From contig JBDRCO010000139.1 in the NCBI GenBank assembly GCA_043821645.1, forward strand, positions 1 to 35,681: 35,681 nucleotides of DNA, read 5' to 3'. Shown piece after piece: positions 220 to 22,501 of the stretch. The notes under the pieces were generated by a model, which ran no database searches, had not been told where the DNA came from, and was given only the letters and a program-made list of their open reading frames with translations. Each line of letters opens with the position of its first letter. Positions within the stretch are counted from its first letter, which is position 1. The DNA comes from Pseudomonadota bacterium. Lineage in GTDB: Bacteria > Myxococcota > JACRCW01 > JAFGSX01. The translations under genes were made by a program, and so were the position numbers.

Positions 220-1734
220 CTAATGATCAAGGCACACGACGCCGACATTGTTAAAAAGAATGGCAGTAGATAGCTTGTGTGGCCAGGCCGCTGCCCGCTC
301 ACAGTATGCCTTTGCGACCTCAATATCTTCTGTGGTGCAATCTGCAAATGCATACCCTGATACTTCTCTGATTAAGTTGATCTTGGACCAATCTGAATGA
401 AAAGCCGAGATATTCATGTCTCCCGTAGCCGTTCGAATCGGCAAGGGATAGCCCCAGTGCCCACCTATCACGGCCAGCTTCATGCTGGACGAAAAACTTG
501 GCTGGCTTTCAAGTTTCACCACAATCCTGTTCGCCATCTCTCGATCCCGCATATTGACGCGAAGCTGATCAAACCAGACGCTGTTGTTGATTCCCGCAAA
601 ACAAAACAGCACGAGCGTCAGCAACACGAGGAGACCTTTTTGTGCTTTCTCTCTGAGTAGGAGATACACCATGGCGGCGGTCCCGGCCCAAAACACACTG
701 ACAGCAGATAGAGTTCGCGGAACGGGCCACCAAACCACCAACGGCAAAGTGATGCCGAGAATCATGAGGAAGGCCATCCCGATCAGGATGATCACCCCGA
801 AAGCGCCCAGGGCGCTTGCGGGTGCATTTCTCTTCCAGAATCTTCCGATGACCAGAATCAATCCAGTGACCAGTAGTCCGCCAAATATGACTTTGAGCGC
901 CACGGGCATGAGCGGCTCGTCGCGCCCAAGAATGAGCCAAAATGTATCCAAAACCTCCCGGAATCGGTTGGCGAGATCCCCCAAACCACCTATCTGGGTT
1001 CGACCTTCAAGAGGTTCTGGAAAGAAATATAAACTCACCCGGAATATGGTCCAGTAACAGGCCATGGAGACCACGATGATTGAAAGACGAAAAACGAGCC
1101 TGACGTCTTGCAGGGAGTCCTTCCAGGTTCGAACAGGCTCGCCAGCTCCCGGCGGAATGACCCGAAAGATCAACATGAAGATCAGAGTCATGAGCACATA
1201 ATTCAAGACCAGCTGGTACAGCGAAAGGGCTGCGACCAACAGACCAACGGCCACCACGCCTCGCACCATTCCGTGACCCGCGTGATGCATGGCCACGAAG
1301 CTCAATAACAGCGAGACGGCCATGAAAAAACTGAACTCTCCGAACGTGAAGATATCCGCTTGGTAGGGATGCGTGGCGATGATGCTCATGACAGAGACCA
1401 TCAAACACGAATTTCTTGTGATACCCCACAATCTGCAAATGATGATTCCAACAAATAGAAAGCAGACCAATGCGACCGCCACATACAGGGTTCCAGGTAA
1501 TGGCCCGACCAGCCCCACGGCCTCAAACAGGTTGCGCAGAATCAGCTGGCCAAATCGTCCTTGGCTCAGTGGCGTGGGTGGCAATCCCGGACGAAGGATT
1601 CGGACGTAGGTATCGCTCGCATAGGCAAAGGGGAACAGAGCCGCCCCCTTGGCGATCAGAGAAATGGCACCGGCGATGAGAAACGCCTGGGCTTCCGACC
1701 TGGAAAGCTTGAAGATGGCCGGGAGCTGCAACAC
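220..1734 (-). CDS. GtrII-like multi-pass membrane glycosyltransferase (GT-C type)
   Basis: 504 aa with about 10-11 hydrophobic helices, GRF, HPY, SLYQ and PR motifs, and a soluble C-terminal domain (D.E.ANRI, ISAF...WSK). Start codon uncertain (TTG at 1734, GGAG upstream). Confidence 0.65.
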   Translation of the reverse strand: MLQLPAIFKLSRSEAQAFLIAGAISLIAKGAALFPFAYASDTYVRILRPGLPPTPLSQGRFGQLILRNLFEAVGLVGPLPGTLYVAVALVCFLFVGIIICRLWGITRNSCLMVSVMSIIATHPYQADIFTFGEFSFFMAVSLLLSFVAMHHAGHGMVRGVVAVGLLVAALSLYQLVLNYVLMTLIFMLIFRVIPPGAGEPVRTWKDSLQDVRLVFRLSIIVVSMACYWTIFRVSLYFFPEPLEGRTQIGGLGDLANRFREVLDTFWLILGRDEPLMPVALKVIFGGLLVTGLILVIGRFWKRNAPASALGAFGVIILIGMAFLMILGITLPLVVWWPVPRTLSAVSVFWAGTAAMVYLLLREKAQKGLLVLLTLVLFCFAGINNSVWFDQLRVNMRDREMANRIVVKLESQPSFSSSMKLAVIGGHWGYPLPIRTATGDMNISAFHSDWSKINLIREVSGYAFADCTTEDIEVAKAYCERAAAWPHKLSTAILFNNVGVVCLDH

Positions 1735-2327: not shown

Positions 2328-4301
2328 TCACTTCGCCTCGGCCTTGGGCGCAGCGACGTTTCCGTCCGCGGCGGAGGCGAGGTCCGTGCGTTGCCACACG
2401 CGGACATAGTCGATCGCGTAATCGGCCGGCAGCTGCGCATCGTCCACCGCGTTGTTGTCCCAACCGCCCGTGGTCATCTCGATGATGAGATACACCGACA
2501 CGTTGGAGACGCGCGGACTCTCCCAACGCCAGAACTCCCTGCCGTTGGCGTAGAAGGCGACGACGCCGGGCGTCCACAACAGGCCGCAGGTGATGAAGCC
2601 ATCCTTGTCGGCCTGGACGTAGTTGGTCGCCGAACCGACCCCCTTGTGCTCCTGGCCGTAGCCGTCGAAGTGCAGGGCGACGTTGTAGCGATAGGGACCC
2701 CAGCGGGTCAGGTGCTCCATGATGTCCAGTTCCATGGCGCCGTGGCCGGTGTCGGTGCGCTGTTGCCAGGTGCCGGCAGCAGGGCCGCGATCGGGCAAAA
2801 TCCAGAACGTAGGCCACAGACCTGGCGCCCGCGGGAGCTTCACCCTCGCCTCAAAATAGCCGTAGCGCTGCACCCATTTGCCATAGGTGTCGAGATACCC
2901 GCACGCATAGTCGGACTGCGTGAGCCCGGTCAGGTTGTGCGGAGTCGCATCCGGATCGTCGTTGTGGAAGCCGCGCTTCTTCTCGAATCGCAGCGTCGCC
3001 ACGCCGCCACCGAGAATCAAATTGTCCTTGCTCCAGTGACTGGCGCGGTCCCAATAGTTGGGGCCGTAAACGTTCCATGTCGTGTGGTCGATGGCGGCGC
3101 CGTCGAACTCGTCGTCGAGGGTCTTGACCCACGCGCCCTCGACCGGCGGGCGCTGGCCGAGCCAGGCGGGAAGGATGGCCTCAGGCGCCGCGGCCGTGAC
3201 CGATTCGATCCGCATGGCCGCCTCGCCCTGGTGCCGGACCACGATCTGCACGGCGCTGGCCGCATCGCTGGTGAACTCGGTGCCCGTGCCAGGTTCGCTG
3301 CCAAAGCCCCCTGCTCGGGTCACGGCAACGCCCTTGCCTGGTACAGCGGGAATGAACGAGACCGCCATCTCGCGCTCGCTGCCCGGAGCCACGGAATCGG
3401 CCGTCACGAGGTCGGTCGGTCCGCCATTGCTTGCCAGCTGAACGCTCGGCACCCACGGCGTGCGGCCCGTGTTCTTCAGCTTGACGCGGACTTCCGTCGC
3501 CAGGGTCAGGTCCCAGCGACCAACCGGCGGCTTCAGCGACAGCGAGTGCTCCCCCGGGCCGGCTACAAAGACGACGTCGAGCGACTGCCGGCCATTTGCA
3601 CCCGCAACAACCGATGCTTTGGCGCCGACGGTCTCGATCTGCGTCGCCGCGTCGATCGACACGCCCGGGCCGAGCAGGACGCCATCCTTGGGCTGGATGC
3701 GTAGGGAGGCTGGATCCACCGGCGGTTTCTCGCCCGCCGGACCGCCGGCGACCAGAGATTCGACCCGGAACGACTTCAGGGCATCGGCCTTGTCGCTGAA
3801 CAGGACAATGTTCACGACCGCGTCCGGTTTCAGGGCATAGCCGGGCTTGTGGCCATTCTGATGCCCGAAAATCACCGTGATGCTGCCGCGCTCTCCCGGC
3901 TTGAGGTGGACCTGCTCGACGTTCCAGGGCGCGGCGTGCCCGTCGTCCTCGTTGTCGACACGGAGGGCGAACAGGGACGCCGTGGCGCCGGTATTGACCA
4001 CGCGTGCCTCGACATGCCCGAAAGCGGAGAGATCCCAGGCCTTGCCCTTCGGCTTGAGGTTGACGCCGGGATGGGCCGCCGCGCCCGCCTGTATGGTGAT
4101 CACGAGCCCCGGGGCCGCCGCTTCCGCGCTCGGGGCCACGGTGACCTGCCCGTCGACTCCCCCAAAGGGCGATACGCGAAAATCGCGCGCATGGGTCCAG
4201 TCCGGGAGTTCTTTCGCCGGGCTGTCGACACACGCCCCTGAAACGATCGCAGCGCCCGGAATCAACAGCAGCGCACACAGGACGACTCGCGAAACGCTCA
4301 T
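2328..4301 (-). CDS. Secreted glycoside hydrolase family 16 with two N-terminal CBM-like domains
   Basis: GH16 motifs DEFDG, YGYFEARVKLP..PGLWPTFW, catalytic ELDIMEH, WTP and IDYVRVWQ. Signal peptide after ATG 4301, with AAGGA upstream. Confidence 0.9.
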   Translation of the reverse strand: MSVSRVVLCALLLIPGAAIVSGACVDSPAKELPDWTHARDFRVSPFGGVDGQVTVAPSAEAAAPGLVITIQAGAAAHPGVNLKPKGKAWDLSAFGHVEARVVNTGATASLFALRVDNEDDGHAAPWNVEQVHLKPGERGSITVIFGHQNGHKPGYALKPDAVVNIVLFSDKADALKSFRVESLVAGGPAGEKPPVDPASLRIQPKDGVLLGPGVSIDAATQIETVGAKASVVAGANGRQSLDVVFVAGPGEHSLSLKPPVGRWDLTLATEVRVKLKNTGRTPWVPSVQLASNGGPTDLVTADSVAPGSEREMAVSFIPAVPGKGVAVTRAGGFGSEPGTGTEFTSDAASAVQIVVRHQGEAAMRIESVTAAAPEAILPAWLGQRPPVEGAWVKTLDDEFDGAAIDHTTWNVYGPNYWDRASHWSKDNLILGGGVATLRFEKKRGFHNDDPDATPHNLTGLTQSDYACGYLDTYGKWVQRYGYFEARVKLPRAPGLWPTFWILPDRGPAAGTWQQRTDTGHGAMELDIMEHLTRWGPYRYNVALHFDGYGQEHKGVGSATNYVQADKDGFITCGLLWTPGVVAFYANGREFWRWESPRVSNVSVYLIIEMTTGGWDNNAVDDAQLPADYAIDYVRVWQRTDLASAADGNVAAPKAEAK

Positions 4302-5270
4302 CCGTGGTCCTTCTGTCCGGGATTCCTCAGCGGACCTCGGCCCGGTGCACGGCCGCACGACCTGGCAGCGTGCTGCTGCATGTCCATCGCGATCACTCCG
4401 TCCGCGTTGATATCACAGCACGGACGTCACCTGCCGGCAGGCGGCGTGTGGGCTCCAGGATGACCCTGGTCCGCTTGGCGCTCAACCGGGTCACGCCCCG
4501 CGGGGCTGCCGACACATGCGGCTCGGCCCCCTGCGCCGGGCGACGACCTGGGGCATTTTCTGAGTTTAGGGGCGCATCGCAGGGCATGCACGGTGCGCTT
4601 CCCAACAGGTGCCGCTCAAACACTTATCCAAAATATCAACGTGTTATAGATCTTCAAACAGGGCCAGCCGGTTGTCATCCAGGCGGGGTACGCAGCACTG
4701 TTCGGTGCGATCCGTGTGTCGCTTGACCTGCGTCGACGTCGTGACCTGGTTGATGTGTACTTCGTTGGCGGGCGGGTTTGGCGAGAACCAGGCATGAGCG
4801 AGCTCAGGGACTCGATGCGAACAGGCAGCAGGTTGCCACCGGCGTGAGGGGTCCGCGTTTCAGCACAGCGATAGTTCGTCATCGCGTAGCGAAGAACCGC
4901 TGGCCGACGGCGATGATTGCTCGAGGGAGCCCCGCAACGATGGCCTGGACCACCAGCAGCTGAATCCATGGCTGCTCGCACTAACGCACGCCCCATATTG
5001 CAGTCATTCAGAGTCGGCGGCGAGCTGCGTAGCTGACAGTGGATGTGGCGAGAGAACAAACTGCATGGTTCGTGGCCCGGTTTGGCTCTGTTTGTGAAGT
5101 CTGTTTGGCTCTGTCCCTGAAGTCTGAAGTTTCTGTTGCAGCGCATCGAGTGACCCGCTCGAGGGTGCCATCCCGGCCCGGCCCGTTCCCGCGCCACCCT
5201 CCGCCCCACTCCCCCATTGGTGAGGCGGCGCTCGAGGAACAGGCCAAGCAGGTGCCCGTTCCTTGTGGGG

Positions 5271-7754
5271 TCAGTAGCCGATGGCGCGTGACCGCTTGCG
5301 CACCGCCAACAGGATTCCCCCGATGAGGAACAAAGCAGTGTTCGGGACGCCGTTCCCGTTGGCAGAACACGAGCAGCCACCCGCTTCGTCGGGCTGCTCT
5401 TGCTGTGCTACCGGGGCACCGCTGCAGGCCCGGCCCACGCCGTCGCTGGCCTGCTGGTCGCTGTTGGGCACCAGGGGGCAGTTGTCGTCGACGTCAGGGA
5501 CGCCATCCCCGTCGGTGTCCAGCGGCGGCAACGCGGGCTCGCAGGCGTCGCCTGTGCCATCGCCATCCGCGTCTTCCTGGTCGGGATTGGCGATGCCGGG
5601 GCAGTTGTCGGCGGCATCAGCGACACCGTCGTCATCGCCATCGCTCTCGGAGGTGCACACGTCGCCGACACCATCGGCGTTGCCGTCGCTCTGATCGGCA
5701 TTGGCGACGCCGGGACAGTTGTCACAGGCATCACCCACGCCATCCTGATCCGAGTCGGCTCCACTGTCGGCGATGCTCGGGCACAGGTCACAGGCATCGG
5801 GCAGACCATCGGCGTCGCCATCTGCGTCGCTGGTCGTGGCCAGGCCAGGGCAGGGATCGCAGGCGTCGCCGCGCTGATCGCCGTCACTGTCCTCTTGCCC
5901 GGGGTTGTCCACCGTCGGGCAGTTGTCCACGTCGTCCAGGATCCCGTCGGTATCGGATTCGAAGACCTGAAAGGCTCCGATGTCGCAGCCCACGCCCGAG
6001 GCCGGGCGCGCGGAGCCACGTTGATCGGCCGTCACCAGGGCCCCGTCCTGATCCACGCAGGTGCCCGCATGCAGCGCCGGACTTCCCTGCTCGAGCGCCA
6101 CGGTGGGCGTCGACCCGCCGTGATCGCCAAAGTCGCCCAGCCCCGGGGTGCCGCTCAGGACATCGCTCGGGTCACCGGTGCAGCCACCCTGGCTGTCGAA
6201 GAGATTGAAGCCCTGGGAGTCCACACCACCGCCGTAGCCAGAACAGTCCGGGTGAACCGTCGACACATTGTCGACGATGATGCTGCCTCGCGGCGCGATG
6301 GTCCCGTACAGCGAGAACACGCCACCCGCGATCGCCTGGCCGTCCTCGGCCTGGGTCAGGATGGTCCCGGCAGCTCCCTTGACTCCCGCCGTCGCCACGT
6401 TGGCGACGATGGTCACATGGTCCAGGGTCACGAAGCCCGAGTGATCGAAGATCGCGCCACCCAGGCCAGCGCCACCCCCACCCGCAGCACCGTCGAGCGA
6501 GTTCGACAGACCTCCCGCGCCGCCACCAAAGCCGGCGTTGGGGCAGTAGTTCCTGCTGGCCGGGTCGCAGACGGGCTGGCGGGTACTGCAGGCGCCCGAG
6601 CCAGCCCCGCCACCGCCAAAGCCTCCCCTGCCACCGTGGTTGGGCCATTCGCAGGTGCCACCGCCGCCGCCGCCGCCGCCGAGATGGCCACCACGACCAC
6701 CACCGCTGCTGCCACCGCCTCCGCCAAGGCCTCCGCCCATGCCCCCCGGGTTGTAGGACAAATAATTGTCGGGGTTGGCCAGGCCGCCCGGCCCGCCGGG
6801 TCCTCCCCGCGCCTCGTTGCCGGTCAGGGTCGAGGTGGACAGGCGTACCTGTCCGTTGTCGTTGTAGATGGCGCCGCCGGCGCCCGCCGCTCCGCCACCG
6901 CCGCCTCCACCAAGGACGGCCCCGCTGCTGCCAGCGCCACCTGCGCCGCCCACGGCGAGGTTGTCAAAGAAGCTGCAGCCGCGCGCGGCGAAGAAGCCGC
7001 TGTTGAAGATCGCGCCGCCCGCACCGGGCCCCTTGACCCTGGAATCATGCGCTTCACTGCAGATACCCTCGAAGCACACCTCGTCCGTGATGCCGTCAGA
7101 TCCCAGGGCCACGTTGTCCCGGGCCACGACGTCGATGAGCGCCAGGTTGCCCTGGTTGAAAATGGCGCCGCCTCCCGTGAGGGCGCGCCCGCCGCGCAGG
7201 GTGAGGTCGCGGATCTCGACGCTGTGGGTGGCCAGGACGTGGACGATGCGATCGTTCCCGGCTCCATCGAGGATGGTCACGCTCGCCCCGAGCCCCCGGA
7301 TCTCGAGGTCACCAGCGATATCCAGATCGCCGAAGGCGTTCTCGTTGTCTCCCCCACTGGGCTGGCACACCTCCACCAGTTCCGGGTCGGGGAAGCACAG
7401 ATCAGGGTTGCGCCGGCTGAGCGTGTAGGTCCCCTCGCCGAGCAGGATGACATCGCGGACGCCCGTCTCTCCTGCGGTGCAGCCCCCCAGGGCCCTGTCG
7501 GCGTTCGCCGAGTCCACCGCTTCGCGCAGCGAACAGCCTGTGTCCGGGCCAGGTGCGAAGCGACAGTACGATCCCTGGACGCGGGATTCGCAGACCGCAT
7601 CGTCCTCGCAAAAGAAGTCTGGCCCCTGCGAGCACATCCCACGCCACGAGTTCTCGTCCGCAAAGGTCGTCACGGTGATCTCGGCGGCGTGCACCGAGGC
7701 TGTCGACAGCAGGGCCGCGACGAGCACGAGAATCGATCCAGATAGTGTTCTCAT
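5271..7754 (-). CDS. Cell-surface protein: CSLREA domain, Gly-rich beta-helix-like region, thrombospondin type 3 repeats, MYXO-CTERM
   Basis: Signal peptide, GCSLREAV motif, GGAIFN/GGAIYN repeats, choice-of-anchor-Q-like DQRG..RP....CDIGAF, repeated DNCP...N..Q.D.DGD..GDAC, and a C-terminal GGCSC + hydrophobic helix + RKRSR. Confidence 0.85.
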   Translation of the reverse strand: MRTLSGSILVLVAALLSTASVHAAEITVTTFADENSWRGMCSQGPDFFCEDDAVCESRVQGSYCRFAPGPDTGCSLREAVDSANADRALGGCTAGETGVRDVILLGEGTYTLSRRNPDLCFPDPELVEVCQPSGGDNENAFGDLDIAGDLEIRGLGASVTILDGAGNDRIVHVLATHSVEIRDLTLRGGRALTGGGAIFNQGNLALIDVVARDNVALGSDGITDEVCFEGICSEAHDSRVKGPGAGGAIFNSGFFAARGCSFFDNLAVGGAGGAGSSGAVLGGGGGGGAAGAGGAIYNDNGQVRLSTSTLTGNEARGGPGGPGGLANPDNYLSYNPGGMGGGLGGGGGSSGGGRGGHLGGGGGGGGTCEWPNHGGRGGFGGGGAGSGACSTRQPVCDPASRNYCPNAGFGGGAGGLSNSLDGAAGGGGAGLGGAIFDHSGFVTLDHVTIVANVATAGVKGAAGTILTQAEDGQAIAGGVFSLYGTIAPRGSIIVDNVSTVHPDCSGYGGGVDSQGFNLFDSQGGCTGDPSDVLSGTPGLGDFGDHGGSTPTVALEQGSPALHAGTCVDQDGALVTADQRGSARPASGVGCDIGAFQVFESDTDGILDDVDNCPTVDNPGQEDSDGDQRGDACDPCPGLATTSDADGDADGLPDACDLCPSIADSGADSDQDGVGDACDNCPGVANADQSDGNADGVGDVCTSESDGDDDGVADAADNCPGIANPDQEDADGDGTGDACEPALPPLDTDGDGVPDVDDNCPLVPNSDQQASDGVGRACSGAPVAQQEQPDEAGGCSCSANGNGVPNTALFLIGGILLAVRKRSRAIGY
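5430..5960 (-). repeat. Tandem thrombospondin type 3 (Ca-binding) repeats within the CSLREA protein
   Basis: About six D(N/P/L)CP units with DxDGD..GDAC linkers in the translation. Confidence 0.85.
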
Positions 7755-7768
7755 GGTTCTTCCTGGCG

Positions 7769-10700
7769 CTAGCGCGCGACCGAGACGTAGTCGAGGCGCA
7801 GCAGGATGTCGTCGATGTTCTCGAGCACCAGGCCGTCGTCCTGGGGTGTTCTGGAGATCAGCGCCGCCGGGATGAACAGCGCGTACTCGCCATACAGGCC
7901 GCGGGCGGCCAGCTCCGAGGTCGAGCCATTGGCGTAGGCATCGCGCTCGAACTCAGCGCGATCGACGTTGAAGTAGGCTTGCATCCGGGCGCGGCTGCGC
8001 TCATCCGAGCGGCCCACACCCAGCGCTGAGCCGAAGGCGGGGTCCACCTCGTCGGGTTCCCGGAACAGGTTGCGCGAGGGCCGCACCGACGCAGTCTGGA
8101 AGGACGCCTCGTGGGGCGCACACCACTGACTGAAGAAGGTGTTGGACTTGAGCAGATCGATGCGCACGAAAGTGGGGGTGTCGCCCCGGGTCAGGGATGA
8201 GCCAAGGATGCTCGCATTGACGTTCCACAGGCGCTCGGCGCAGTCGCTGGAGGCGAACACCGGGACACCCTGGACCTCGCCCAGACCGAAGGCCGCCAGC
8301 GGTGCCAGCGAGAAGGGAATGCTCTGCCCCACGTAGGCCCCGCTGTCGTCGTACTGGGCAAAGCGCTGCGAGCGCAGCACCATGCGGAAGCGCTCGACAT
8401 CGGTGAGGCGGTGCCAGCCCACGGGCTGGGTCTGCGAGAGGTCACCGAGCTGCAGCAGGTTCTTGCGCAGGCTGAGCACGACCTTAAGATCCGAGGGACG
8501 GTTGCCACCGATGCCACGGGTGGCCGTGATGGTGCGCAGATCGTCGGCCACGGCATCGAGCTCCTCGGGGGTCTCCGCCGCCAGCACACGGGCCTCTTCT
8601 TGCCGGCTCTCCTGGAACTCGTACGCCACGGCGCGAACCGCCAGGTACAGGATGCGCCGGGCAATGCGCAGCTTGCGCTGGTAGGTGTCCACCTTCTCGT
8701 CGAACCAGAAGTCGTTGGACGGCGGCCGCACCTGGCGCGCCGCGGCGATCTTGAGCGCTGCGCGGCCCGCATCGTGGGCGGTCTGTGCCGAGGACTTGTC
8801 CTGCTCGAATTTGTACAGGGCCACGTTCATGTCCGAGATGGCCTTCTGCACGCGCAGCGAGGCGGTGCGCACCCCCACCAGGAACAGCTCCGCGTCGTTG
8901 AAGCACAGCTGCTCGTCCACCTCGTTTTGCAGGTTCAGCATCAGCGCCTCGTGCGAGGCCTCGGCATTGGCCATCTCGGCCTCGATATCGATGCTCTCTG
9001 CTTCCGTGAAGCCCCCGGCCAGTCCGGCTCCCACCGCCACCCCGGCTGCCAGCAAGCTTGTGGGCCCGCCCGCCAGCGTCGCGGCAGCGTCCTCGAAGGC
9101 ATCGAGGAAGGCTGTGGCCTGGTCGGCCTTGGCCTTCTGCGTGCGGAGCGCCGCCATGGTCTGGTTGTGCTGCGCGAGCGCAGACTCCATCGCGTCGTTG
9201 CCGACCTGCTGGATGATGCAGGAGCGAATGGCCACGTCGTAGGAGTCCTGCAAATCCGTCATCTCGGAGCGGGCGATGTCCAGATCCGTGACCACACCCT
9301 TCAGCTCGAGGGCGGATTCGCCGAGGCCACCGTTGTAGCAGGCGCGGTCCGTCAGGGGCTGCCCGGGCAGGTCCGCGACCCGCGGCAGCTGCTCCCGGGC
9401 CCGCGGGAACTGCCGTTGACAGGTGGTCCGCGCCTCTTCGAGCAAGGCCACGGGTGTCTGCTCCATCCCCTGGAAGGCCTGAAACACGCTCGGGGGCACG
9501 GGCACGCTGCGGCAACCCGGCCCGTCGGGGTTTCTGGTACACGCGCAGCGGGCATCGTCGGGGTTGGCAGCGCAGTAGACACAGGCCGCCGCCACGACAC
9601 CTTGACCCGTGAGGGCGGCGCCTGCGCAGCCCGTCCACAGAGCGGCGTCGAGCAGCGCCACGTCGTCGAGAGCACCGGCAGCGTCCAGGGCGACACCGGC
9701 GGTGAAGTCGACGATTCGCTCGCTCAGGCGCGGGCTCCACTGGCACGACATGCAGGGACCGGGCACACCCTCCGGGCACTCGGCGGGGAAGGTGGGGTTG
9801 CTGCAGCCCGCGATCTCGTCGCTGACGCCCTCGTAGGCGGGGTCCAGGAAGCCTATCCCCTGGGCCGTACGCGTGCGCAGCTCGCGGACCACGCAGAACT
9901 GGTACTGCAGGTCGTCGAGCTGCATCGCCTGCTCGTAGGCCTCGACGGGCACCTGACAGCTCGGGTCCGAGGACAGGATGAAGCAGTTGTTGGCCGAGAA
10001 GCGGGACGGCCAGTGCTCCAGGACGTCCAGGGGATCGACGCCGGCCGGAAGACCGCAGTAGCCGATCACCTGATCACCGAAGGTGCGGCGGATCTGATCG
10101 AGACGATCGGCCAGCTGGGCGTCATCGAGCGCTTGCTCGAACTGCCGCTGCTGCAGCGCCAGGCCCGCTTCCTGCGCGGCCACACGTGCATCCTTGGCCT
10201 GCTGCACGGCCACGCGCCCGAAGGCCGAGATCGAACCCGGGGCCCCCAGCAGGAAGTCCGAGATCGCGGTGAAGCGGCTGGTGGCCGTGCTCTCGTCGCC
10301 AAAGAAGTACAGCGGCAGATCGCTGTCAGCGATGCCCAGGGGGTTGCGACCGAGCTCGGCGTCGCGCGCGGCCCGCAGCAGGGCGCGCAGGGTCCCGTCG
10401 TAGGTGCGCTCGCTCCCCACGTAGCGTTCGAGCCAGCGCGCCGGGGGCAGGCCCTGCTCCGCTGCGTGGCGCTGGGCCTGGGCCACAAGCCCGGCCGCGA
10501 TGGCACGCACCGGAGCCTCGGTCCGCAGGAACTGCGCCAGCGCGTCGCGCACCCGCGCCAGGGTCACCGGCGGGCAATCCACCGGGCAGCGCTGGGCGCG
10601 GAGCATCAGCTCGCGCAGCAGGCTGGCCTGGGCATCCAGGGTCTCGAGCAGCAGAGGAGCAAGTCCTGCCTGCGCGTCGGGGCCGCTGTCCTTGAGGGCC

Positions 10701-13066
10701 TGCTCGCTGGCACCGTAGAAGCGGCGATAGTCCGGCGCGTAGGCGACGGCGTCGGGCAGGGCCTGCAGGGCCGAGAAGACCCGCGGGTGCAGCAACAGGT
10801 GCCAGCCGGCCAGCGAGACGTCCAGGGCGTCCACGGGCTGGATCTCGGTCGGCAACTCGACGATCTTCTGGATCGAGTCCAGCTGCAGGGCCTCGCGCGC
10901 GACCAGCCCGTGCAGGGTCAACCACGACTGCAGCAAATGCTGGGTCAGCGCCAGGGCCTGGGCATCGTCTGGCTGCGCGGTCGCACCGGGTGGGCGGCGC
11001 GCAGGACCCGTCGCCTGGCCCAGGGCAAAGGCGAAGCGGCCAGCGCCCAGACAGCCGGTGTTCGCAAAGAGATCATCCAGCGCCTTGCCATTGGTCCACG
11101 CCGTCGAGGCGGGAGCCTGGCGCGCGTCCTCGAGATCCGTCATGCAGGCCTCGAAGACCTTGAAGAACCCGTCGCTACCGCGGGCGTCCACGAGACCGGC
11201 GGAGCGCGTGCCCGAGCTGCACGTGCTCTCGCCGGCCGCGTCCAGGCTGGCACTGAACAGCGAAGACTTGGTCGAGTCGTGGGTGACGTCCTCGGGCTCA
11301 AAGCCGTGGCCATCCCAGCACAGGCTCAGCTGCGCGCAGCCAGCACAGCCGGTGGGCTGATCGAAGACGCAGACCCGCTCGACATCCGTCGGGACCTCGT
11401 ACACTCGGAGCCGAGGTTGGGTTGTTGCCGGGTCCAGGTCCACGTCGCTGCTCACCACAATCCTGGTCGTCAACACCGCTGCATCCTGGGTCGAGCGCAC
11501 CGTGCAGCCGTAGTTTTCGGCGACGACATCGCAGGCGTCGACGGAGCCCATGTCCAGGGTGTTCTGATCGACAAGATGTGGACGGAAGACTCGGGGTGAG
11601 ATCTGGCAGGGAAAGGCGCCGCCCAGGCTGGCGTCGACGATCAGAAGATCGGTCTGCAGCGACGTGATGGGGGTGCTGCTGTAGCCGGCGAGTTCTTTGG
11701 CATCGCGGAAGGCGACCACCAGGGGATCGCTGGACGCAGGGTCCTCCGAATGCCAGAAGGCCCTGGCCGCCTCGGTCACCATCTTCGCGGCGTCGGCCGG
11801 CTTGCACACGTCCAGGTAGCCTGCGTCGCGGCGCAGGCCAAAGTAGGCGCCGGCCTCGACGCCGGCTGCGACGTCAAAGCTGCCGAACTCAGGACTCAGG
11901 GCCTCCTGAACCCTGGTCTCCCATGTGCTCGGAATGTCGCGGCGCGCGAGCGGAGGATCCTGGGCGGCGGGCAGCTGCGGCCGTGGCGCGGTGGCCGGCA
12001 GCACCCCGCTGCGGCTGAGCACGACGCTGTACACCACCCGCGGTGCCGGGCCCTGGTCGCCGACGCCCGCAAAGGACAGCTCCAGCTCGAAGGACAGCGT
12101 CGGGCTGGCGCCCGTCACCAGGACCTCGGCCGCCGCGGGCCGGGCCACGACCTCGCTGCTGAGGCCGGCGAGCGCGGTGCCCATCAGATACGTGTAGGCG
12201 GGCCACTGCAGGCTGCCGCTCTGTGAGCCGCTGGCGAGCTGCAGGCTTCCGATCAAGCGGCCGCTTGGGTGGAGCAGCTTCTGGGCGTCGTTCACGACCA
12301 AGATCCCGCTCCCTGAGGTCCCGTCCGCAAACAGCTCGGCGGTGAGCGGATAGCTGAGCTCGTCCTCGACCGCAGGCAGCGGACTCCCGTCCAGGCCGAC
12401 ACCCCTTTGCTTGATCGTCGCCGAACCGAGGTAGACGCCGGCGCGCGGGCCCTGCTGCGCATCCGCCGTGGGCTCGACGGTCAGCGAGTAGCGGTCGCTG
12501 CCACTGAAGATGCCGAGCACGCCCGCCGGGGTGGTGGCCGGTTCACCGTCGAGGCGAACGCGCAGGGCCTGGGAGTCCAGACCTGCGATCCCCGGGTAGC
12601 TGCACTCCGACGCAAAGGTCGATGCTGTACACGCCACCGAGAATCCCTCGGGTGCCGTCACGCGAACCGGGCCGAGCGCCTGCTCGGGCGCTCCCAGCTT
12701 CACCTGGCGCGTCACGCCCGACGCGTGAAAGCGCAAAAACTTCGTCGACAGCGTGAGCGGTGCTTGTCGCACCGTGGACGGAAATGGCGTGACGTTCTCA
12801 TCGCCCACCGCCCGGCATCGACCGAAGGAGTCGCACAGGCCGCCGCCGCACTGCGCGTCCGAGCTGCAGTCGGCGGTGCAGGTGCCGAGGGCGCAGTGGG
12901 TCCCGCAGGGGCAGTGATCGTCGTTCACGCAGGTTCCGGCGGAGGCGACGAGCTGCGCGCTCACCTCACAGCGAGCCATGGAGGGTGTGGTTTCTTTTTT
13001 ATCTGTGGCGGGACAGGCAGCCAGTAGGAGCAGGCCGACAGGGACTGCAAGGGTCGCGCGAGGCAT
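7769..13066 (-). CDS. Very large lipoprotein (~1765 aa) with Cys-rich N-terminus and Tc toxin A-subunit-like C-terminal region
   Basis: ATG 13066 with AGGAGGAG RBS and lipobox LLLLAAC. Long helical region around an Ala/Gly hydrophobic stretch, ARRILYLAVRAVAYEF, and a C-terminal GLYGEYALFIP...IDDILLRLDYVS. The ORF is secure; the product is inferred. Confidence 0.6.
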   Translation of the reverse strand: MPRATLAVPVGLLLLAACPATDKKETTPSMARCEVSAQLVASAGTCVNDDHCPCGTHCALGTCTADCSSDAQCGGGLCDSFGRCRAVGDENVTPFPSTVRQAPLTLSTKFLRFHASGVTRQVKLGAPEQALGPVRVTAPEGFSVACTASTFASECSYPGIAGLDSQALRVRLDGEPATTPAGVLGIFSGSDRYSLTVEPTADAQQGPRAGVYLGSATIKQRGVGLDGSPLPAVEDELSYPLTAELFADGTSGSGILVVNDAQKLLHPSGRLIGSLQLASGSQSGSLQWPAYTYLMGTALAGLSSEVVARPAAAEVLVTGASPTLSFELELSFAGVGDQGPAPRVVYSVVLSRSGVLPATAPRPQLPAAQDPPLARRDIPSTWETRVQEALSPEFGSFDVAAGVEAGAYFGLRRDAGYLDVCKPADAAKMVTEAARAFWHSEDPASSDPLVVAFRDAKELAGYSSTPITSLQTDLLIVDASLGGAFPCQISPRVFRPHLVDQNTLDMGSVDACDVVAENYGCTVRSTQDAAVLTTRIVVSSDVDLDPATTQPRLRVYEVPTDVERVCVFDQPTGCAGCAQLSLCWDGHGFEPEDVTHDSTKSSLFSASLDAAGESTCSSGTRSAGLVDARGSDGFFKVFEACMTDLEDARQAPASTAWTNGKALDDLFANTGCLGAGRFAFALGQATGPARRPPGATAQPDDAQALALTQHLLQSWLTLHGLVAREALQLDSIQKIVELPTEIQPVDALDVSLAGWHLLLHPRVFSALQALPDAVAYAPDYRRFYGASEQALKDSGPDAQAGLAPLLLETLDAQASLLRELMLRAQRCPVDCPPVTLARVRDALAQFLRTEAPVRAIAAGLVAQAQRHAAEQGLPPARWLERYVGSERTYDGTLRALLRAARDAELGRNPLGIADSDLPLYFFGDESTATSRFTAISDFLLGAPGSISAFGRVAVQQAKDARVAAQEAGLALQQRQFEQALDDAQLADRLDQIRRTFGDQVIGYCGLPAGVDPLDVLEHWPSRFSANNCFILSSDPSCQVPVEAYEQAMQLDDLQYQFCVVRELRTRTAQGIGFLDPAYEGVSDEIAGCSNPTFPAECPEGVPGPCMSCQWSPRLSERIVDFTAGVALDAAGALDDVALLDAALWTGCAGAALTGQGVVAAACVYCAANPDDARCACTRNPDGPGCRSVPVPPSVFQAFQGMEQTPVALLEEARTTCQRQFPRAREQLPRVADLPGQPLTDRACYNGGLGESALELKGVVTDLDIARSEMTDLQDSYDVAIRSCIIQQVGNDAMESALAQHNQTMAALRTQKAKADQATAFLDAFEDAAATLAGGPTSLLAAGVAVGAGLAGGFTEAESIDIEAEMANAEASHEALMLNLQNEVDEQLCFNDAELFLVGVRTASLRVQKAISDMNVALYKFEQDKSSAQTAHDAGRAALKIAAARQVRPPSNDFWFDEKVDTYQRKLRIARRILYLAVRAVAYEFQESRQEEARVLAAETPEELDAVADDLRTITATRGIGGNRPSDLKVVLSLRKNLLQLGDLSQTQPVGWHRLTDVERFRMVLRSQRFAQYDDSGAYVGQSIPFSLAPLAAFGLGEVQGVPVFASSDCAERLWNVNASILGSSLTRGDTPTFVRIDLLKSNTFFSQWCAPHEASFQTASVRPSRNLFREPDEVDPAFGSALGVGRSDERSRARMQAYFNVDRAEFERDAYANGSTSELAARGLYGEYALFIPAALISRTPQDDGLVLENIDDILLRLDYVSVAR

Positions 13067-13347
13067 GGCCCTCTCCTCCTGCACGCAGGTGCAGACATGA
13101 ATCGGTATTTCGGTGACATGAACGAGGCGCGTCGGTCGCTGCAGGCCACATGACCGCTGCCGATGGGACCGCCCCGGGATTTCAATCCGGTCGTGTCACG
13201 CACCTAGTGCTGGATGACGCCCACCGCAAGCCATTGACCCATACGGTCGCGTATATTTTTGTATCCGGCAGGTCCCCCGATTCAGGGAGCAGCTCGACCC
13301 TGCCGCGGTGTGGCCGCCCCGGCGGACTCGATGAAGGGCGCAGTCCT

Positions 13348-13970: not shown

Positions 13971-15605
13971 TCATGGGCACGGCGAGCTTCCTGCCCATCG
14001 ACGCCACCGCCCCAGCGCGCCCAACCCCAGCAGCAGGCCCCAGCCGAGGCCCGATCCGGTCGCCGCACCGCGACAGGCACAGCCCTCGGGCCGCCCCACA
14101 CCTCGGTCCGCGGCCGCGCCGTCCGTGGCGCTGCCAGCGTCGAGGGTCATCCTCGTATCGCCGTCCCCGGCGTCCTGGGGCGAACGCGCGTCAACGACGC
14201 CAGCGTCGACCGAGGCCTCGGGGCGCGCCACATCCAGCGCGCTGCCCGCGTCCAGGGCCGGGACCTCGACGGTGATCGAGGCGCCGCCCGTGCCGGCGCT
14301 GCCGGTGCACGAGAGCTGGAAACTGCTGGTTGCGTCGAGCGGTCCCACTGTCTCGCTGCCGCTCGTCGGTCTGCTCCCCGACCAGGCACCGGCGGCGGTG
14401 CACCCGGTGGCGTGCTGAGAGGACCAGCTCAGCTCGCTGCTCCCTCCACGGGCCACGCTCGACGGATTCGCGGCCAGGGTGACGATGGGAGGCGACTGGC
14501 CCGTGCCATCGCTCAGCCTGTACACGAAGACGTCCTCGTCCACCGCGTTGACCACGACGAACACGTTGTGCGTCGGTGCGTAGCGAAAGCGGCCAAAGGT
14601 GCCGTTGCTGGCGGGCGCGGTGGGAACGACGGTGTTGGTCGCGGCCGCCGCCACCCGGGTCCAGGCCCAGGTCGTGGGGTCGAGGGTCAGCACCTCGGCG
14701 CCGCCGGCCCAGCCGACGAAGATCGCGCTCACCGGGTCGTAGACGAAGCCGGGGGTCGAGGCCTGCACCACGGTCTGCTCGCCGCTGGTGCTCAGCACCA
14801 CTGCCGCGCTGTCTCCTGACACGGTGAGGTCCCAGCGATAGGCAGCGCCCCCACCCACCGCCACCAGCTGCTGCCCCACCGGATCGATGGCCGCGGTCAG
14901 GCTGTAGGAGAAGTACTCGCTCTCGGTCCACTGGCCGCCGTGCGAGGTCCAGCTATCGGCGCTGGCGTCGTACTCGGCCAGGGACGCCATGCCGCCGCAG
15001 CCATGCAGCCAGGCGTGACCGGTGCTGGGATCGACGGCCGAGAAGGCGCCAATGATGGAGCCGCGAGCCGTGACGTCGGCGCGCTGCTCCCACAGCCCGG
15101 TCGCGAAGTTGAAGCAGTCGGTGTGCTGGGTGCCGGTCTGGCCGGAGATGTAAAAGGCCGCACCGCCGAAGGAGCAGAAGGCATCGATGATGGGCACGTA
15201 CTGCACGTAGTTGTAGGTGTGGCGGGAGGTCGGGTTGCCGTCGGGTGCGTAGGGGACGTCCTCGCCGGGCGGGCTGCTGGGCTCGGTCAGCCGGCTCCAG
15301 CGGAGGCTTGTCAGGTCAAAGGCATAAAGCTCGTTGCCCGCGTAGTCGCCGTGTCCGCCGCCCCAGACCAGCAGCCTGTCGCGCGCCGTGTCGAAGGCCC
15401 CGCCTCCCCAGGCGCCCATCACCGCGGCCTGTCCGCCCACAGCGCTGTAGTCGCAGGTGCGGTTCGGGCAGGGGTCGACCGCTCGCATGTGCGAGTCCGG
15501 CACCTGGTACCACTCTCCGGGCAGCAGGTCCTCGACGGGGCCGGCCCGCGCCGTGCTGGCGCCAATCAACAGAGTCCACGTCAAAACGCCAAGGAGCAGT
15601 CGCAT
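13971..15605 (-). CDS. Secreted Kelch-like beta-propeller protein with Ig-like module, low-complexity linker and MYXO-CTERM
   Basis: Signal peptide, repeated GG...Y.FD....W blades, an SSELSWSS..AT.CTA.GAWSG module, a DAG-rich linker, and GCAC + hydrophobic helix + RWRR. Confidence 0.75.
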   Translation of the reverse strand: MRLLLGVLTWTLLIGASTARAGPVEDLLPGEWYQVPDSHMRAVDPCPNRTCDYSAVGGQAAVMGAWGGGAFDTARDRLLVWGGGHGDYAGNELYAFDLTSLRWSRLTEPSSPPGEDVPYAPDGNPTSRHTYNYVQYVPIIDAFCSFGGAAFYISGQTGTQHTDCFNFATGLWEQRADVTARGSIIGAFSAVDPSTGHAWLHGCGGMASLAEYDASADSWTSHGGQWTESEYFSYSLTAAIDPVGQQLVAVGGGAAYRWDLTVSGDSAAVVLSTSGEQTVVQASTPGFVYDPVSAIFVGWAGGAEVLTLDPTTWAWTRVAAAATNTVVPTAPASNGTFGRFRYAPTHNVFVVVNAVDEDVFVYRLSDGTGQSPPIVTLAANPSSVARGGSSELSWSSQHATGCTAAGAWSGSRPTSGSETVGPLDATSSFQLSCTGSAGTGGASITVEVPALDAGSALDVARPEASVDAGVVDARSPQDAGDGDTRMTLDAGSATDGAAADRGVGRPEGCACRGAATGSGLGWGLLLGLGALGRWRRWAGSSPCP

Positions 15606-15667: not shown

Positions 15668-17197
15668 CTACTTTGTCTCGGTGTGCACCAGCGCCGCCCT
15701 GCGAGTTCGGTATTTCCTGAAGAGAAGAAGCAGGGTGACGACCACCGAGGCGATCGTCGCGAGCCGGGCATAGGGTCTGAGCGGGTCGACGAGCGCACGC
15801 ACGATCTCCAGGCTGTCGGCCAGGGGCACGCCCCGGATGGCCTGAATCAGAAAAAACAACGAGCCGGGGATCAGCGGCACCAGCAGGGGAGCCAGGAGCA
15901 GGACCAGCACCCCAAGGCCGAGCGTGCTGGGTCCGGATAGACCCGGCGGCGCAGCTGCGGGCTGCTGTTGAACCCTGTCCACGATGTAACGGGCGGTGTC
16001 GGCAGCGCCGTCTTCCGCTCTGAGTTGTTCCCCCAGGGTCCTCGCGGCGTTCACGATCTCGGGTTGCAGCGCCTCCTGGATGCCAGCCAGCAAAGCGGCG
16101 CTGGTCAGCTTCTTGTTCGCGATGGGACGGGCGCCAACCCCCAGGTCGTGGACCCGCTGGCCCCAGGCAAACTGGTCGTTGCCATGGGGAATGATCAGCG
16201 AGGGAACACCCGCGCGCATGCCGGCCGCCGTGGTGCCCGCGCCGCCGTGATGAACCACCAGAGCAACCCGAGGAAAGAGCCAGGCGTGGGGCGCCTCGCG
16301 AATGAAATGGATGCTGTCAGAGGCTTCGACGGCATCGTCCAGGCCACCGGCTCCGGTGGCGATCAGGGCCCGGCACCCGCACTCGGCCACGGCCTCGACC
16401 ACCATCCTGGTCTTGAACGCCGCCTCGCCGTGGGAACCGACGCTGCCAAAGCCGACATAGATGGGCTTCTCGCCTCGTTGCAGAAAGTCCACCAGGTCCG
16501 CGGGTGCTTGATAGCGGTCACCCTCGTCGAAAAACCAGTAGCCCTTGCAGAATGCCGGCTCCGACGTTTTGAAGATACGATTGCTGCACGAGATCAGCTT
16601 GTTGCCGTCGTGAAGAAAGGGATTCTCGAAGCTGCGCTTCTGCCCATCCAGGTTCTTGAAGTACAGGGCGATGGGCTTGCGGATCGCCATCCAGAAGCCT
16701 TGATAGAAGAGCCTGTGCGTCAGGCGGTTGAGAAACCTGGGGATCTTTCTGCCGTACAGCAAGATGGCGGGATACTCGGCGCTGCTCGTCATCGGAAACG
16801 GCGCCCCCAGAAAAGCAGGGATGCCACGCTCCCGGGCCAGGAAGTGGGCCACGCTGGCGCCAGGGTGAAACACGACCGCGTCCGCGCCCTGGCAGGCCTG
16901 CGCGTAGTCCTGCTGCAGCTTGAGAAAGACCGACATGAACTCCGGTCTGTCGATGCTGCGGAGCATCTTGATGGGACCGGCGGCCTTCATGGCGTCGTCA
17001 ACCTGTCCGCTCGCGAGCACCTTGTCGATGTCGATGCGGACCTGGCTGTAGCGCAGCCCATGTTCGGTGACGAGGTGCTTGAAGTTCTCCCCGGCGGCCA
17101 CGGTGACCTGCACGCCGAGCTTCTCGAGAGCCACGCCCAGGGCCACGAAAGGCTGGGTGTCGCCCCGGCTCCCGGCTGTCAGCAGGCTGATCTTCAT
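15668..17197 (-). CDS. GT1-family glycosyltransferase (sterol glucosyltransferase/EryCIII-like) with a C-terminal membrane extension
   Basis: GSRGDTQPFVALG, IYVGFGS, PHAWLFPR..LVVHHGGAGTTAAG.RAGVP, DQFAWG; ATG 17197 with GGAG RBS. Confidence 0.9.
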   Translation of the reverse strand: MKISLLTAGSRGDTQPFVALGVALEKLGVQVTVAAGENFKHLVTEHGLRYSQVRIDIDKVLASGQVDDAMKAAGPIKMLRSIDRPEFMSVFLKLQQDYAQACQGADAVVFHPGASVAHFLARERGIPAFLGAPFPMTSSAEYPAILLYGRKIPRFLNRLTHRLFYQGFWMAIRKPIALYFKNLDGQKRSFENPFLHDGNKLISCSNRIFKTSEPAFCKGYWFFDEGDRYQAPADLVDFLQRGEKPIYVGFGSVGSHGEAAFKTRMVVEAVAECGCRALIATGAGGLDDAVEASDSIHFIREAPHAWLFPRVALVVHHGGAGTTAAGMRAGVPSLIIPHGNDQFAWGQRVHDLGVGARPIANKKLTSAALLAGIQEALQPEIVNAARTLGEQLRAEDGAADTARYIVDRVQQQPAAAPPGLSGPSTLGLGVLVLLLAPLLVPLIPGSLFFLIQAIRGVPLADSLEIVRALVDPLRPYARLATIASVVVTLLLLFRKYRTRRAALVHTETK

Positions 17198-17559
17198 CGG
17201 GTCTCCACGCACAGCGGCTCGCCGCCGCACAAGATGCTCAGGCACCGCCGCCCTCGAGGGCATCACTGGCCTGTTGCAGTGCCTCTGTTCCCTTTTCTCG
17301 CCATGAGCTCCCTGGTGGTCATCGTGGGTTTTCGGGCCGGGTTGTGCAACTACGGATGGCCAAACTTCATCACGGGTCGCGCCCGGCGCCGAGCACTCCA
17401 CATCGGCGACATGGTCGCATCGAGGCCGGCGATCCAGAGCGGAAGATGGTATCTGTTGTCTCTCGGCTCATCGCGGCGAGGCTGGGGCAGCGAACCGGTG
17501 CCCACATGAGCAGCGCCGCTTCGACCCGGCGGTGATCGTCGACCGCCTCTTGGACGACC

Positions 17560-18030
17560 ATGGCATCGCACCAGGTGAAAGCCGGCCCCGAGGAACGTCG
17601 TCACCTGCCCCCGCAGCGAGTGGGCCGCAACAGGATCCGCTGGCTCGGCAGCGCCGTGCTGCTGGTCGCGCTCTGCCTGGCGCCCCGGGCCAGCGCGCTG
17701 GAGCGGGACGACACGCTGATCCTCGGTGGAGTGCTGCTCGGCCTCGGCTACGTCAGCCAGCTGCCCATCGCCTTTCTCGACCGGGACAGCCTGAGCAGCG
17801 ACCTGGCCCGGCAGCCCGTCTGGACCTTCTTCGTCCCCGTGGTGGGGTCGTCGGCCTCGCTCTACTACGCCTTCGGTTCGAGCTGCGAGGGCGAGAAGTT
17901 CTCCGGCGAGTGCAACTTTGCCAAGGGGGGGCGAATCGTCGCCTTCTCGCTGGGGCTCGGCTTGCAGCTCGCCGGCCTCGGCTTCCTCGCGGCAGGAGGA
18001 CTGGACGCCCTCACCCAGACCGGCGAGTAG
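17560..18030 (+). CDS. Hypothetical exported/membrane protein
   Basis: Signal-like hydrophobic segment ending ASA, further hydrophobic helices (FVPVVG, GLGLQLAGLGFLAAG), GC3-rich codons. Start uncertain. Confidence 0.6.
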   Translation: MASHQVKAGPEERRHLPPQRVGRNRIRWLGSAVLLVALCLAPRASALERDDTLILGGVLLGLGYVSQLPIAFLDRDSLSSDLARQPVWTFFVPVVGSSASLYYAFGSSCEGEKFSGECNFAKGGRIVAFSLGLGLQLAGLGFLAAGGLDALTQTGE

Positions 18031-18142
18031 CGAGGTCCGCACACCGGCCACACCGCCCCGTCCCCGGTCTCACTCGGCAGGGCATCAGCCTTGCGCGCTC
18101 GGGCTGGCGTTGCCACAGTCCCGCCGCGCGAAGGGAGCCACC

Positions 18143-18925: not shown

Positions 18926-19121
18926 CGGACCTGCACAGGCCCTGGCGGTGCCTGAGTGGTGGGGACAAAGCCCTAGGCTTGGATCGGCGCCCTCCCCCGG
19001 ACCTGTATACGTCGGTGGCTGCGATGTGGTCGTCAGGGTCCCAGAGCTGCGGTCTGGCTGCCGAACCCTGTCCGCTCGACCTGGTCGCGGGCCGAGGTGC
19101 CCGGGTCGACGGAGGTTCTGC

Positions 19122-19166
19122 GTGAACATCGTGTTGTGGATTGTTCAGGTGCTGCTCGCCCTTGCG
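19122..19166 (+). pseudogene. Remnant 5' end of a DoxX-family membrane protein gene
   Basis: GGAGG RBS then GTG giving MNIVLWIVQVLLALA, a typical DoxX-family N-terminus; the similarity stops after ~15 codons. Confidence 0.5.
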
Positions 19167-21073: not shown

Positions 21074-21224
21074 CATATAGCAGAAACAATCGACTGGAAC
21101 AGATGAACTGGCAACGGTAACTAGAAACCAGACCCGGTTCGGTGTCGGCTTGGCCGGCGCGACTGCTGCGAGCCGGGCTGGGTGTCTCGATTTGCGTTCA
21201 ACTCGAAGCCAGGAGGAGATCGTC

Positions 21225-22499: not shown

Positions 22500-22501
22500 A
22501 C

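Follow-up and report, generated by a model that had tools for sequence, protein, structure and literature searches.

A lipoprotein-type giant protein of Myxococcota with a C-terminal module predicted to resemble the translocation unit of Tc toxin A subunits

We analysed a 35,681-nucleotide stretch of a Myxococcota contig (JBDRCO010000139.1, assembly GCA_043821645.1; hereafter the window) that encodes a giant protein with an N-terminal lipoprotein-type signal. A first-pass annotation had proposed this protein to be a surface-tethered pore or translocase resembling the A subunit (TcA) of Tc toxins, paired with the surface protein encoded next to it. The best-supported explanation of our results is that the C-terminal third of the giant protein descends from, or at least is predicted to fold like, the TcA translocation unit, and that it is joined to a different body. 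The last ~520 residues would then be a very remote relative of two conserved working parts of TcA, the channel hairpin and the beta-rich, TcB-binding funnel. By analogy with TcA the module may function as a pore or translocon. For an oligomeric alpha-helical channel that acts on the membrane of another cell our confidence is evenly balanced, because oligomerization and membrane insertion are argued from that analogy.

The C-terminal module and its resemblance to TcA

The C-terminal module (residues 1195–1771, 577 residues; module numbering plus 1194 gives protein numbering) was modelled with AlphaFold2 in template-free mode from 88 sequences, comprising the window protein and 87 family members. 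The model (mean predicted local distance difference test (pLDDT) 82.2, predicted template modelling score (pTM) 0.72) consists of a ~90-residue down-and-up helical hairpin with an Ala/Gly tip, followed by a beta domain. Helices 58–99 and 102–145 descend and helices 166–191 and 195–255 ascend, so that the long helices expected on both sides of the Ala/Gly stretch AAATLAGGPTSLLAAGVAVGAGLAGGF are present in the model; the segment corresponding to this stretch (146–165) was predicted with low confidence as a short helix. The hairpin is followed by helices 269–296, which holds ARRILYLAVRAVAYEF, 302–308 and 312–327, and by a beta-rich domain (337–576) whose last strand is IDDILLRLDYVSVA.

When the model was compared with 350,542 PDB chains using Foldseek, all 22 matches at E≤1e-3 were TcA subunits, and the first non-Tc match followed at E 1.4e-2. 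The TcA matches (E 8.8e-7 to 1.1e-4, probability 1.00) extended over 551–622 columns, approximately the whole module, at 10–14% identity. They comprised YenA2 (9c4k_B, 8.8e-7), TcaA-TcaB (6rwb_A, 1.1e-6), XptA1, XptA2, TcdA4 and TcdA1 (4o9y_A, 7.8e-6), the last in prepore, intermediate and pore states (pore state, 5lki_A). Rank 23 was taken by 6l7i_A, a 179-residue part of TcdA1, with a template modelling (TM) score by target of 0.51 and a root-mean-square deviation (rmsd) of 7.7 Å. The order proposed by the first-pass annotation, in which a long hairpin of helices, hydrophobic at its tip, precedes a C-terminal beta domain, is accordingly found in the last ~520 residues.

The hydrophobic maximum of the module (Kyte-Doolittle, 19-residue windows, 1.45) falls exactly at the hairpin tip. 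The corresponding maxima of ten genuine tip-spanning TcA segments were 1.24–1.73, and several of these fall on the aligned Gly/Ala-rich loop. The tip of the TcA channel is called 'highly hydrophobic' in an excerpt of PMC6795518. The objection that the tip of the giant protein is too mildly hydrophobic for insertion was dropped, since genuine TcAs give similar values. A complex prediction with three copies of module residues 262–577 scored 0.10 against a mark of 0.42, which is evidence neither for nor against self-binding.

The sequence signal connecting the family to TcA is real but marginal and does not amount to family membership. Using hhalign, the family profile matched SepA alone with a probability of 0.3%, and a profile of 13 plasmid-borne TcA C-termini (SepA and twelve others) with a probability of 1.05% and E 0.051. 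The latter match pairs D.WLDE..Y.R.MR.ARR..YLAVRAVEYE.Q with the TcA helix LY.WM.GRLS..YYQ.Y..A. A greedier setting gave a single co-linear alignment of 394 columns between module residues 65–576 and TcA segment residues 181–622 (score 28.1, P 0.024). In this alignment the two tip loops are matched to each other, L..VVSLR to LE.TRTVSL, CAERLW.VNAS to RRIK.VSVTLP, GLYG.YALFIP to GA.S.W.L.L, and VDDILLRLDYVS to L.DVILH.RYT. In control alignments the reversed TcA profile scored 25.5, and none of 40 block-shuffled profiles reached 28.1 (maximum 25.5).

A language-model feature search of the ESM Atlas, for which residues 1310–1891 (582 residues) of the homologue P0030 stood in for the window module, returned a 'Tc toxin subunit A-related' cluster at rank 5. 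This cluster (score 0.94, 210 of 256 features) carries PF18276 in 86% of its members and represents 12 of the 30 matches. The top three matches (0.95–0.96) were unnamed clusters of hypothetical proteins of 693–760 residues, commonest in Verrucomicrobiota; outside Myxococcota they may represent a shorter relative of the module that bridges the gap to TcA. A profile search with the C module in a set of 5.8 billion proteins found no such bridging relative; it returned 23 proteins (E 6.5e-228 to 2.2e-124), none of which carries a Pfam domain.

The family, its N-terminal body and envelope targeting

The family is large and has neither a family name nor an annotation. A word-indexed search returned 35 relatives, most of them 1566–1891 residues long, and those with names are hypothetical proteins of Myxococcota metagenome-assembled genomes (MAGs) or of Persicimonas caeni. 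When residues 572–1771 were compared exhaustively by phmmer with 1.84 billion cluster representatives (clusters at 50% identity), 563 proteins matched at E≤1e-3, 400 of them at E≤1e-30. Conservation peaks in the last ~560 residues, and some members align over their full length. Scanning 185,579 species genomes yielded 132 confirmed relatives; locus counts given below rest on the best 80 of these, which lie in 79 loci and do not include the closest relatives, P0004 and P0005. All specific titles among the 79 loci are of Myxococcota lineages, Bradymonadales or 'Deltaproteobacteria', and three are unspecific ('Proteobacteria bacterium', 'bacterium' and 'uncultured proteobacterium'). Ten assemblies carry 2–5 of the loci each. 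A full-text literature search found no description of TcA-like proteins in Myxococcota or Bradymonadales.

The N-terminal part (residues 25–1194) was folded with 39 homologues (pLDDT 77.6, pTM 0.67). The model places a small Cys-rich knot, beta sandwiches, a mixed alpha/beta region, an all-helical domain of ~450 residues and a poorly predicted Cys-rich insert in this order. At E≤1e-3 Foldseek matched three chains, each of them from 3sot, a DUF1735 multidomain surface protein of Bacteroides, with PapD-like immunoglobulin (Ig) folds and chaperones and others next. A feature search among named clusters with the helical mid-region (P0030 residues 780–1180) returned no usable match. The motif G.NPLGI.D.DLPLYF.GD......RF.A.SD.L.G (GRNPLGIADSDLPLYFFG in the window protein) is nearly invariant in the family and sits in a segment modelled at a pLDDT of ~45.

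The motifs quoted in the first-pass annotation, namely the lipobox, the Cys-rich module, the Ala/Gly stretch, which it had put at ~9007–9090, and the C-terminal motifs, were all recovered at their places (Table 1), and its reading of the giant protein as a lipoprotein is upheld by the LLLLAAC signal and by the recurrence of the lipobox in the family. Residues 21–24 (L-A-A-C) fit the lipobox [LVI][ASTVI][GAS]C near the N-terminus, as judged by pattern match. Among full-length homologues starting with Met, a lipobox occurs within the first 45 residues in 44 of 133 by the strict pattern and in 80 of 133 by a looser one, and most of the homologue N-termini printed contain a hydrophobic stretch that ends in Cys. 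From these sequence features we infer both the lipidation of the giant protein and the membrane that would hold it. In Myxococcus, lipoproteins with Lys at position +2 stay in the inner membrane; the giant protein has Pro at this position. It contains 46 Cys, and eight Cys columns are conserved in the C module (alignment of 88 members); module columns 95 and 200 hold Cys in 85 and 87 of the 88 members, respectively. The even number of conserved Cys together with the high total fits an exported, disulfide-bonded, extracytoplasmic protein.

The neighbour gene and the surrounding loci

The gene downstream of the giant gene, P0002, had been described as a CSLREA/TSP3/MYXO-CTERM gene 14 base pairs away. 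Its ATG indeed lies 14 bases past the TAG of the giant gene on the same strand, with AGGAAG in the gap, and no terminator-like site was found between the two genes. A scan of positions 4400–13900 gave no sigma-70-like site, a result that is uninformative for the host phylum. The two genes are probably co-transcribed in the window. P0002 matches Pfam TSP_3 (PF02412, 3.6e-31, five stretches) and NCBIfam choice-of-anchor Q (NF041518, 57.4 bits against a cut-off of 25). Position and TSP3 content therefore stand; the CSLREA and MYXO-CTERM labels are likely but remain below the curated thresholds, with 18.4 bits for CSLREA_Nterm (TIGR04214, cut-off 25) and 18.9 bits for MYXO-CTERM (TIGR03901, cut-off 20, positions 2–33 of 34).

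The proposed pairing of the two genes, for which linkage across relatives was the test set in advance, did not hold up. When P0002 was compared with the 79 loci by tblastn, four high-scoring segment pairs were found at two loci, all in the TSP3 region. At least 1.5 kb of downstream sequence was available for 62 loci, 29 of which have a co-directional open reading frame (ORF) of at least 150 residues starting −60 to 150 bases from the stop codon. TSP_3 was found by Pfam in none of 32 such downstream ORFs, whose content is heterogeneous and includes RCC1, FG-GAP/disintegrin, the MopE motif and fibrinogen_C. Clustering of 1607 flanking ORFs within 6 kb gave Ser/Thr kinases as the largest cluster (12 of 80 loci), followed by LuxR/AraC regulators, two-component proteins and extracytoplasmic function (ECF) sigma factors, which are families abundant in myxobacteria generally. 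No window ORF belongs to the 15 largest clusters. On the tblastn comparison, the clustering, and Pfam scans of both the cluster representatives and the downstream ORFs, a conserved partner gene was rejected. P0002 is not a conserved partner, and the reading of a paired system is not supported.

At 8 of 80 loci (for example L040:4279-6306, L045:2001-5138, L050:302-2749 and L058:4941-6980) a co-directional, Gly-rich, lipoprotein-like ORF of 675–1045 residues ends just upstream of the giant gene. These ORFs have no Pfam match, occur at loci with shorter family members (~1520–1570 residues) and resemble P0002 in composition. The possibility that they represent the other half of a split gene was rejected by BLASTP (E 1.5 against the giant N-terminus and 0.69 against P0002).

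The other window ORFs that were scanned include those for glycosyltransferases, a GH16 protein, a Kelch protein, a LysR regulator, a baeRF protein and a GGDEF protein. The giant gene and P0002 are flanked by the genes for the GH16 glycoside hydrolase, the Kelch-repeat protein and a GT28/EryCIII-like glycosyltransferase, which together with a GtrII-like glucosyltransferase gene suggest that envelope and glycan genes abound in this region. The GtrII-like gene lies in a stretch of low GC content (0.549 in positions 1–2000, compared with 0.62–0.70 elsewhere in the window), which may be a horizontally acquired surface-glycan gene. The baeRF ORF, a bacterial eRF1-like protein of family 10 (8.7e-19) with an eRF1_3 domain, directly precedes the gene for a GGDEF diguanylate cyclase, the two overlapping by ~230 bases as listed. 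Four further predicted ORFs of 372–821 residues have no significant Pfam or NCBIfam match.

Table 1. Features of the giant gene and of its surroundings in the window
Feature	Window positions	Strand	Basis or remark
Giant gene	7769..13084	-	ORF; 1771 residues from GTG 13084, or 1765 residues from ATG 13066 (database form P0003)
Lipoprotein-type signal peptide MPRATLAVPVGLLLLAAC, Cys24 = predicted lipidated residue	13013..13066	-	sequence; family recurrence
Lipobox LLLLAAC, residues 18-24	13013..13033	-	
N-terminal Cys-rich knot, residues ~39-90 (Cys-rich stretch, residues 52-90), conserved C..DD.CPCG.HC.LG.C.A.C..D.DC..G..CD.FGRC	12815..12970	-	near-invariant Cys columns, model
Beta-sandwich (Ig-like) region, residues ~116-360	12005..12739	-	model all-strand, block pLDDT mostly 83-96
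Mixed alpha/beta region, residues ~387-624	11213..11926	-	model
All-helical domain with long helices, residues ~640-1092	9809..11167	-	model; no PDB match
Motif GRNPLGIADSDLPLYFFG, best-conserved stretch outside the C module	10298..10351	-	family alignment; low-confidence part of model
Variable Cys-rich insert between helical domain and C module, residues ~1094-1249	9338..9805	-	partly low pLDDT
TcA-channel-like helical hairpin, residues 1252-1449: descending H1252-1293, H1296-1339; ascending H1360-1385, H1389-1449	8738..9331	-	model, Foldseek, hhalign
Ala/Gly-rich hydrophobic hairpin tip AAATLAGGPTSLLAAGVAVGAGLAGGF, residues 1333-1359	9008..9088	-	Kyte-Doolittle 19-residue maximum 1.45 = whole-module maximum
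TcB-binding-domain-like C-terminal domain, residues 1463-1771: helix with ARRILYLAVRAVAYEF, then beta-rich domain ending IDDILLRLDYVSVAR	7772..8698	-	family's most conserved part; model
ARRILYLAVRAVAYEF	8615..8662	-	
GLYGEYALFIP	7868..7900	-	within the last 45 residues
IDDILLRLDYVS	7781..7816	-	within the last 45 residues
14-base gap CGCCAGGAAGAACC with Shine-Dalgarno-like AGGAAG	7755..7768	-	sequence; no terminator-like site
Neighbour gene P0002, 827 residues: signal peptide, CSLREA-like motif, Gly-rich region, choice-of-anchor Q, 5 TSP3 stretches, MYXO-CTERM-like tail	5271..7754	-	ORF, Pfam, NCBIfam
GtrII-like glucosyltransferase	220..1734	-	ORF
GH16 glycoside hydrolase	2328..4358	-	ORF
Kelch-repeat protein	13971..15605	-	ORF
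GT28/EryCIII-like glycosyltransferase	15668..17401	-	ORF
ORF with no significant match	18011..19129	-	predicted ORF
baeRF protein	21150..22499	+	ORF
GGDEF diguanylate cyclase	22268..23350	+	ORF
ORF with no significant match	23934..25052	-	predicted ORF
ORF with no significant match	28127..30592	+	predicted ORF
ORF with no significant match	31867..33819	-	predicted ORF

Alternative explanations and comparison with known systems

A number of observations weigh against kinship with TcA. Neither Pfam nor NCBIfam gave a match to the giant protein at E≤0.1; PF18276 (TcA_TcB_BD) was absent among the 25 families listed when 80 family members were scanned at E≤10; and the PDB returned nothing relevant, either by phmmer with the giant protein at E≤10 or by hmmsearch with the family profile, for which a CFA/I fimbrial subunit was best at E 1.7. 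As expected for a genuine TcA, the positive control SepA (Serratia plasmid pADAP) matched PF18276 (3.6e-51), Neuraminidase, ABC_toxin_N and VRP1; the last three likewise gave no Pfam match in the giant protein. The hhalign probability stayed at 0.3–2% throughout. Membership in the TcA families, as the first-pass annotation had envisaged it, was thus found neither by Pfam nor by profile–profile comparison (just 1–2%). The query-normalized TM score of the Foldseek matches is only 0.23–0.29 with an rmsd of 49–65 Å, so they represent a local alignment in the structural alphabet (3Di) over the whole module and not a rigid superposition, and the aligned TcA residues are not displayed in the output. 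Poor superposition is to be expected of a monomer model with 13-nm helices; it is still a limit. No TcA chain occurs among the 50 Foldseek matches listed for the N-terminal 1170 residues, so that a TcA-like shell, the neuraminidase-like domain, the linker and the knot are not in evidence. The absence of TcB and TcC from the window was confirmed: Pfam found no SpvB, TcdB or RHS gene among 19 window ORFs, and phmmer with SepA, SepB and SepC, in a search that did not extend to whole genomes, gave no hit at E≤1e-3 in the 4428 stop-to-stop frames of at least 120 residues that the window and the 79 loci contain (1.15 Mb). Finally, the helix following the tip is acidic in the window protein, and two Cys flanking the tip in much of the family (KDC ... 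C.A, module columns 139 and 157; 62 and 63 of 88 members) are both absent from it. They perhaps form a disulfide staple across the tip loop in most members; the window protein has Ala and Val in their place, which leaves its tip unstapled.

Part of this can be explained by convergence or a model artefact, if a long hairpin followed by a beta sandwich attracts TcA chains in Foldseek with neither common descent nor a common mechanism behind it. The low TM scores and high rmsd, an hhalign probability of 2% at best, a reversed control that scores 25.5 against the real 28.1 and the missing Pfam match would all follow. We nevertheless think it quite improbable, since other long-helix proteins matched only at E≥1.4e-2 over 187–250 columns, in contrast to the 22 of 22 TcA matches, since the independent feature search leads to PF18276 clusters too, and since the weak hhalign alignment is co-linear from end to end and beats 40 of 40 shuffles. 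The TcA-like fold could instead be kept as a rigid, disulfide-stapled stalk, with the beta domain as a ligand-binding or adhesion head and no pore. The Cys pairs that would lock the hairpin in most members, both at columns 95/200 and at the tip, are consistent with such a passive scaffold, as are the N-terminal Ig-like sandwiches that resemble Bacteroides surface proteins and the lack of linked cargo or partner genes in the window and the 79 loci. However, a stalk would have no use for a tip that is the hydrophobic maximum of the module and on a par with genuine TcAs, and the whole unit of channel and funnel is kept co-linear; we regard a scaffold as unlikely. A third reading has the lipoprotein oligomer insert its hairpins into the outer membrane of the producer itself and let proteins out. 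Its N-terminal lipid anchor does link the protein to the producer's membranes, the ten assemblies with several loci hold paralogues, and the products of the heterogeneous adjacent genes are in many cases secreted or surface proteins (RCC1, FG-GAP/disintegrin, MopE motif, fibrinogen_C, and TSP3 in the window). These adjacent genes are not conserved, however, and we know of no precedent for a TcA-type channel acting on the producer's own membrane, which makes an export conduit hardly likely.

If the protein is instead a channel directed at other cells, Sec export and lipidation would place it on the cell envelope, most likely at the outer membrane, and the C-terminal domain would drive oligomerization, which would bring the hairpins together around a central channel. 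Outside this ring of hairpins, the Cys knot, the Ig-like sandwiches and the helical domain would surround the channel and sense or bind the target. Upon contact with a prey or competitor cell the Ala/Gly tip would enter the target membrane, resulting either in a leak or in a passage through which cargo docked on the strongly conserved funnel would move. Localization, oligomeric state, membrane insertion and cargo are steps that we infer. A bolder version, which we consider a long shot, is that the family constitutes the 'A component' so far missing in Myxococcota, as a lipid-anchored translocation channel of TcA descent whose strongly conserved funnel docks YD-shell cocoon toxins encoded elsewhere and which injects their cargo into prey or rivals on contact. 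According to an excerpt of PMC13018210, lipoprotein teneurin-like proteins (TLPs) occur in >20% of Myxococcota, and its authors state that no delivery machinery is known for them. On this reading these lipoproteins would be candidate cocoon toxins. If so, the result would be a cell-bound Tc-like system operating in trans and a molecular basis of contact-dependent predation.

Tc toxins are soluble A5-BC syringes, mainly of Proteobacteria and Firmicutes. With the TcA subunits (TcdA1, TcdA4, XptA1/2, TcaA-TcaB, YenA1/A2 and SepA) the giant protein shares the arrangement and predicted fold of its last ~520 residues, in which a very long helical hairpin with an Ala/Gly-rich hydrophobic tip leads into a helix and then into a terminal, beta-rich domain whose final strand is of the type [VIL].D[VI][IL]L...Y[TV]. 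It also has beta-sandwich and helical domains ahead of the channel, as in the TcA layout given in the excerpted text of PMC6795518. In contrast to TcAs, the giant protein shows no significant sequence similarity and no match to the shell, the neuraminidase-like domain, ABC_toxin_N or VRP1, whereas SepA matches all four of its Pfam families; it carries many Cys, and the family has no TcB or TcC nearby in the window and the 79 loci. To our knowledge TcAs lack a signal peptide, unlike the giant protein with its lipoprotein-type signal. Release of YenTc by lysis is stated in the abstract of PMC10847048. The range differs as well: in a Tc-locus survey, 96.4% of TcC proteins came from Proteobacteria and 3.2% from Firmicutes (PMC7861908), whereas the giant-protein family is found in Myxococcota and Bradymonadales.

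The TLPs of Myxococcota are YD-shell toxins that the same excerpt of PMC13018210 describes as related to the Tc BC cocoon and predicts to be targeted by signal peptidase II (SPII). They share the phylum and the predicted SPII/lipoprotein targeting with the giant protein and differ from it in being cocoon proteins, whereas the giant protein is channel- and funnel-like. With SepB and SepC as queries, neither TLP-like nor RHS-like frames turned up in the window and the 79 loci. ClyA and YaxAB/XaxAB are alpha-helical pore-forming toxins with a hydrophobic hairpin 'foot'. They resemble the module in having a long helical hairpin with a tip that could enter a membrane, but lack the C-terminal beta funnel, and none of them is among the 50 Foldseek matches listed for the C module.

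Taken together, these comparisons point to a distinct lineage in which only the channel and funnel of TcA are kept, fused to a different N-terminal body and lipid-anchored, and whose named carriers are two groups of predatory bacteria. If the module forms a channel, it would offer a concrete candidate for the means by which myxobacteria and bradymonabacteria kill on contact, it would show the Tc translocation unit evolving as an independent module, and its use by the orphan YD-shell toxins of these phyla would become testable. The existence of cultivable carriers (Persicimonas caeni with FIV42_18000, and a MAG titled Haliangium ochraceum) makes knock-out and biochemical tests feasible.

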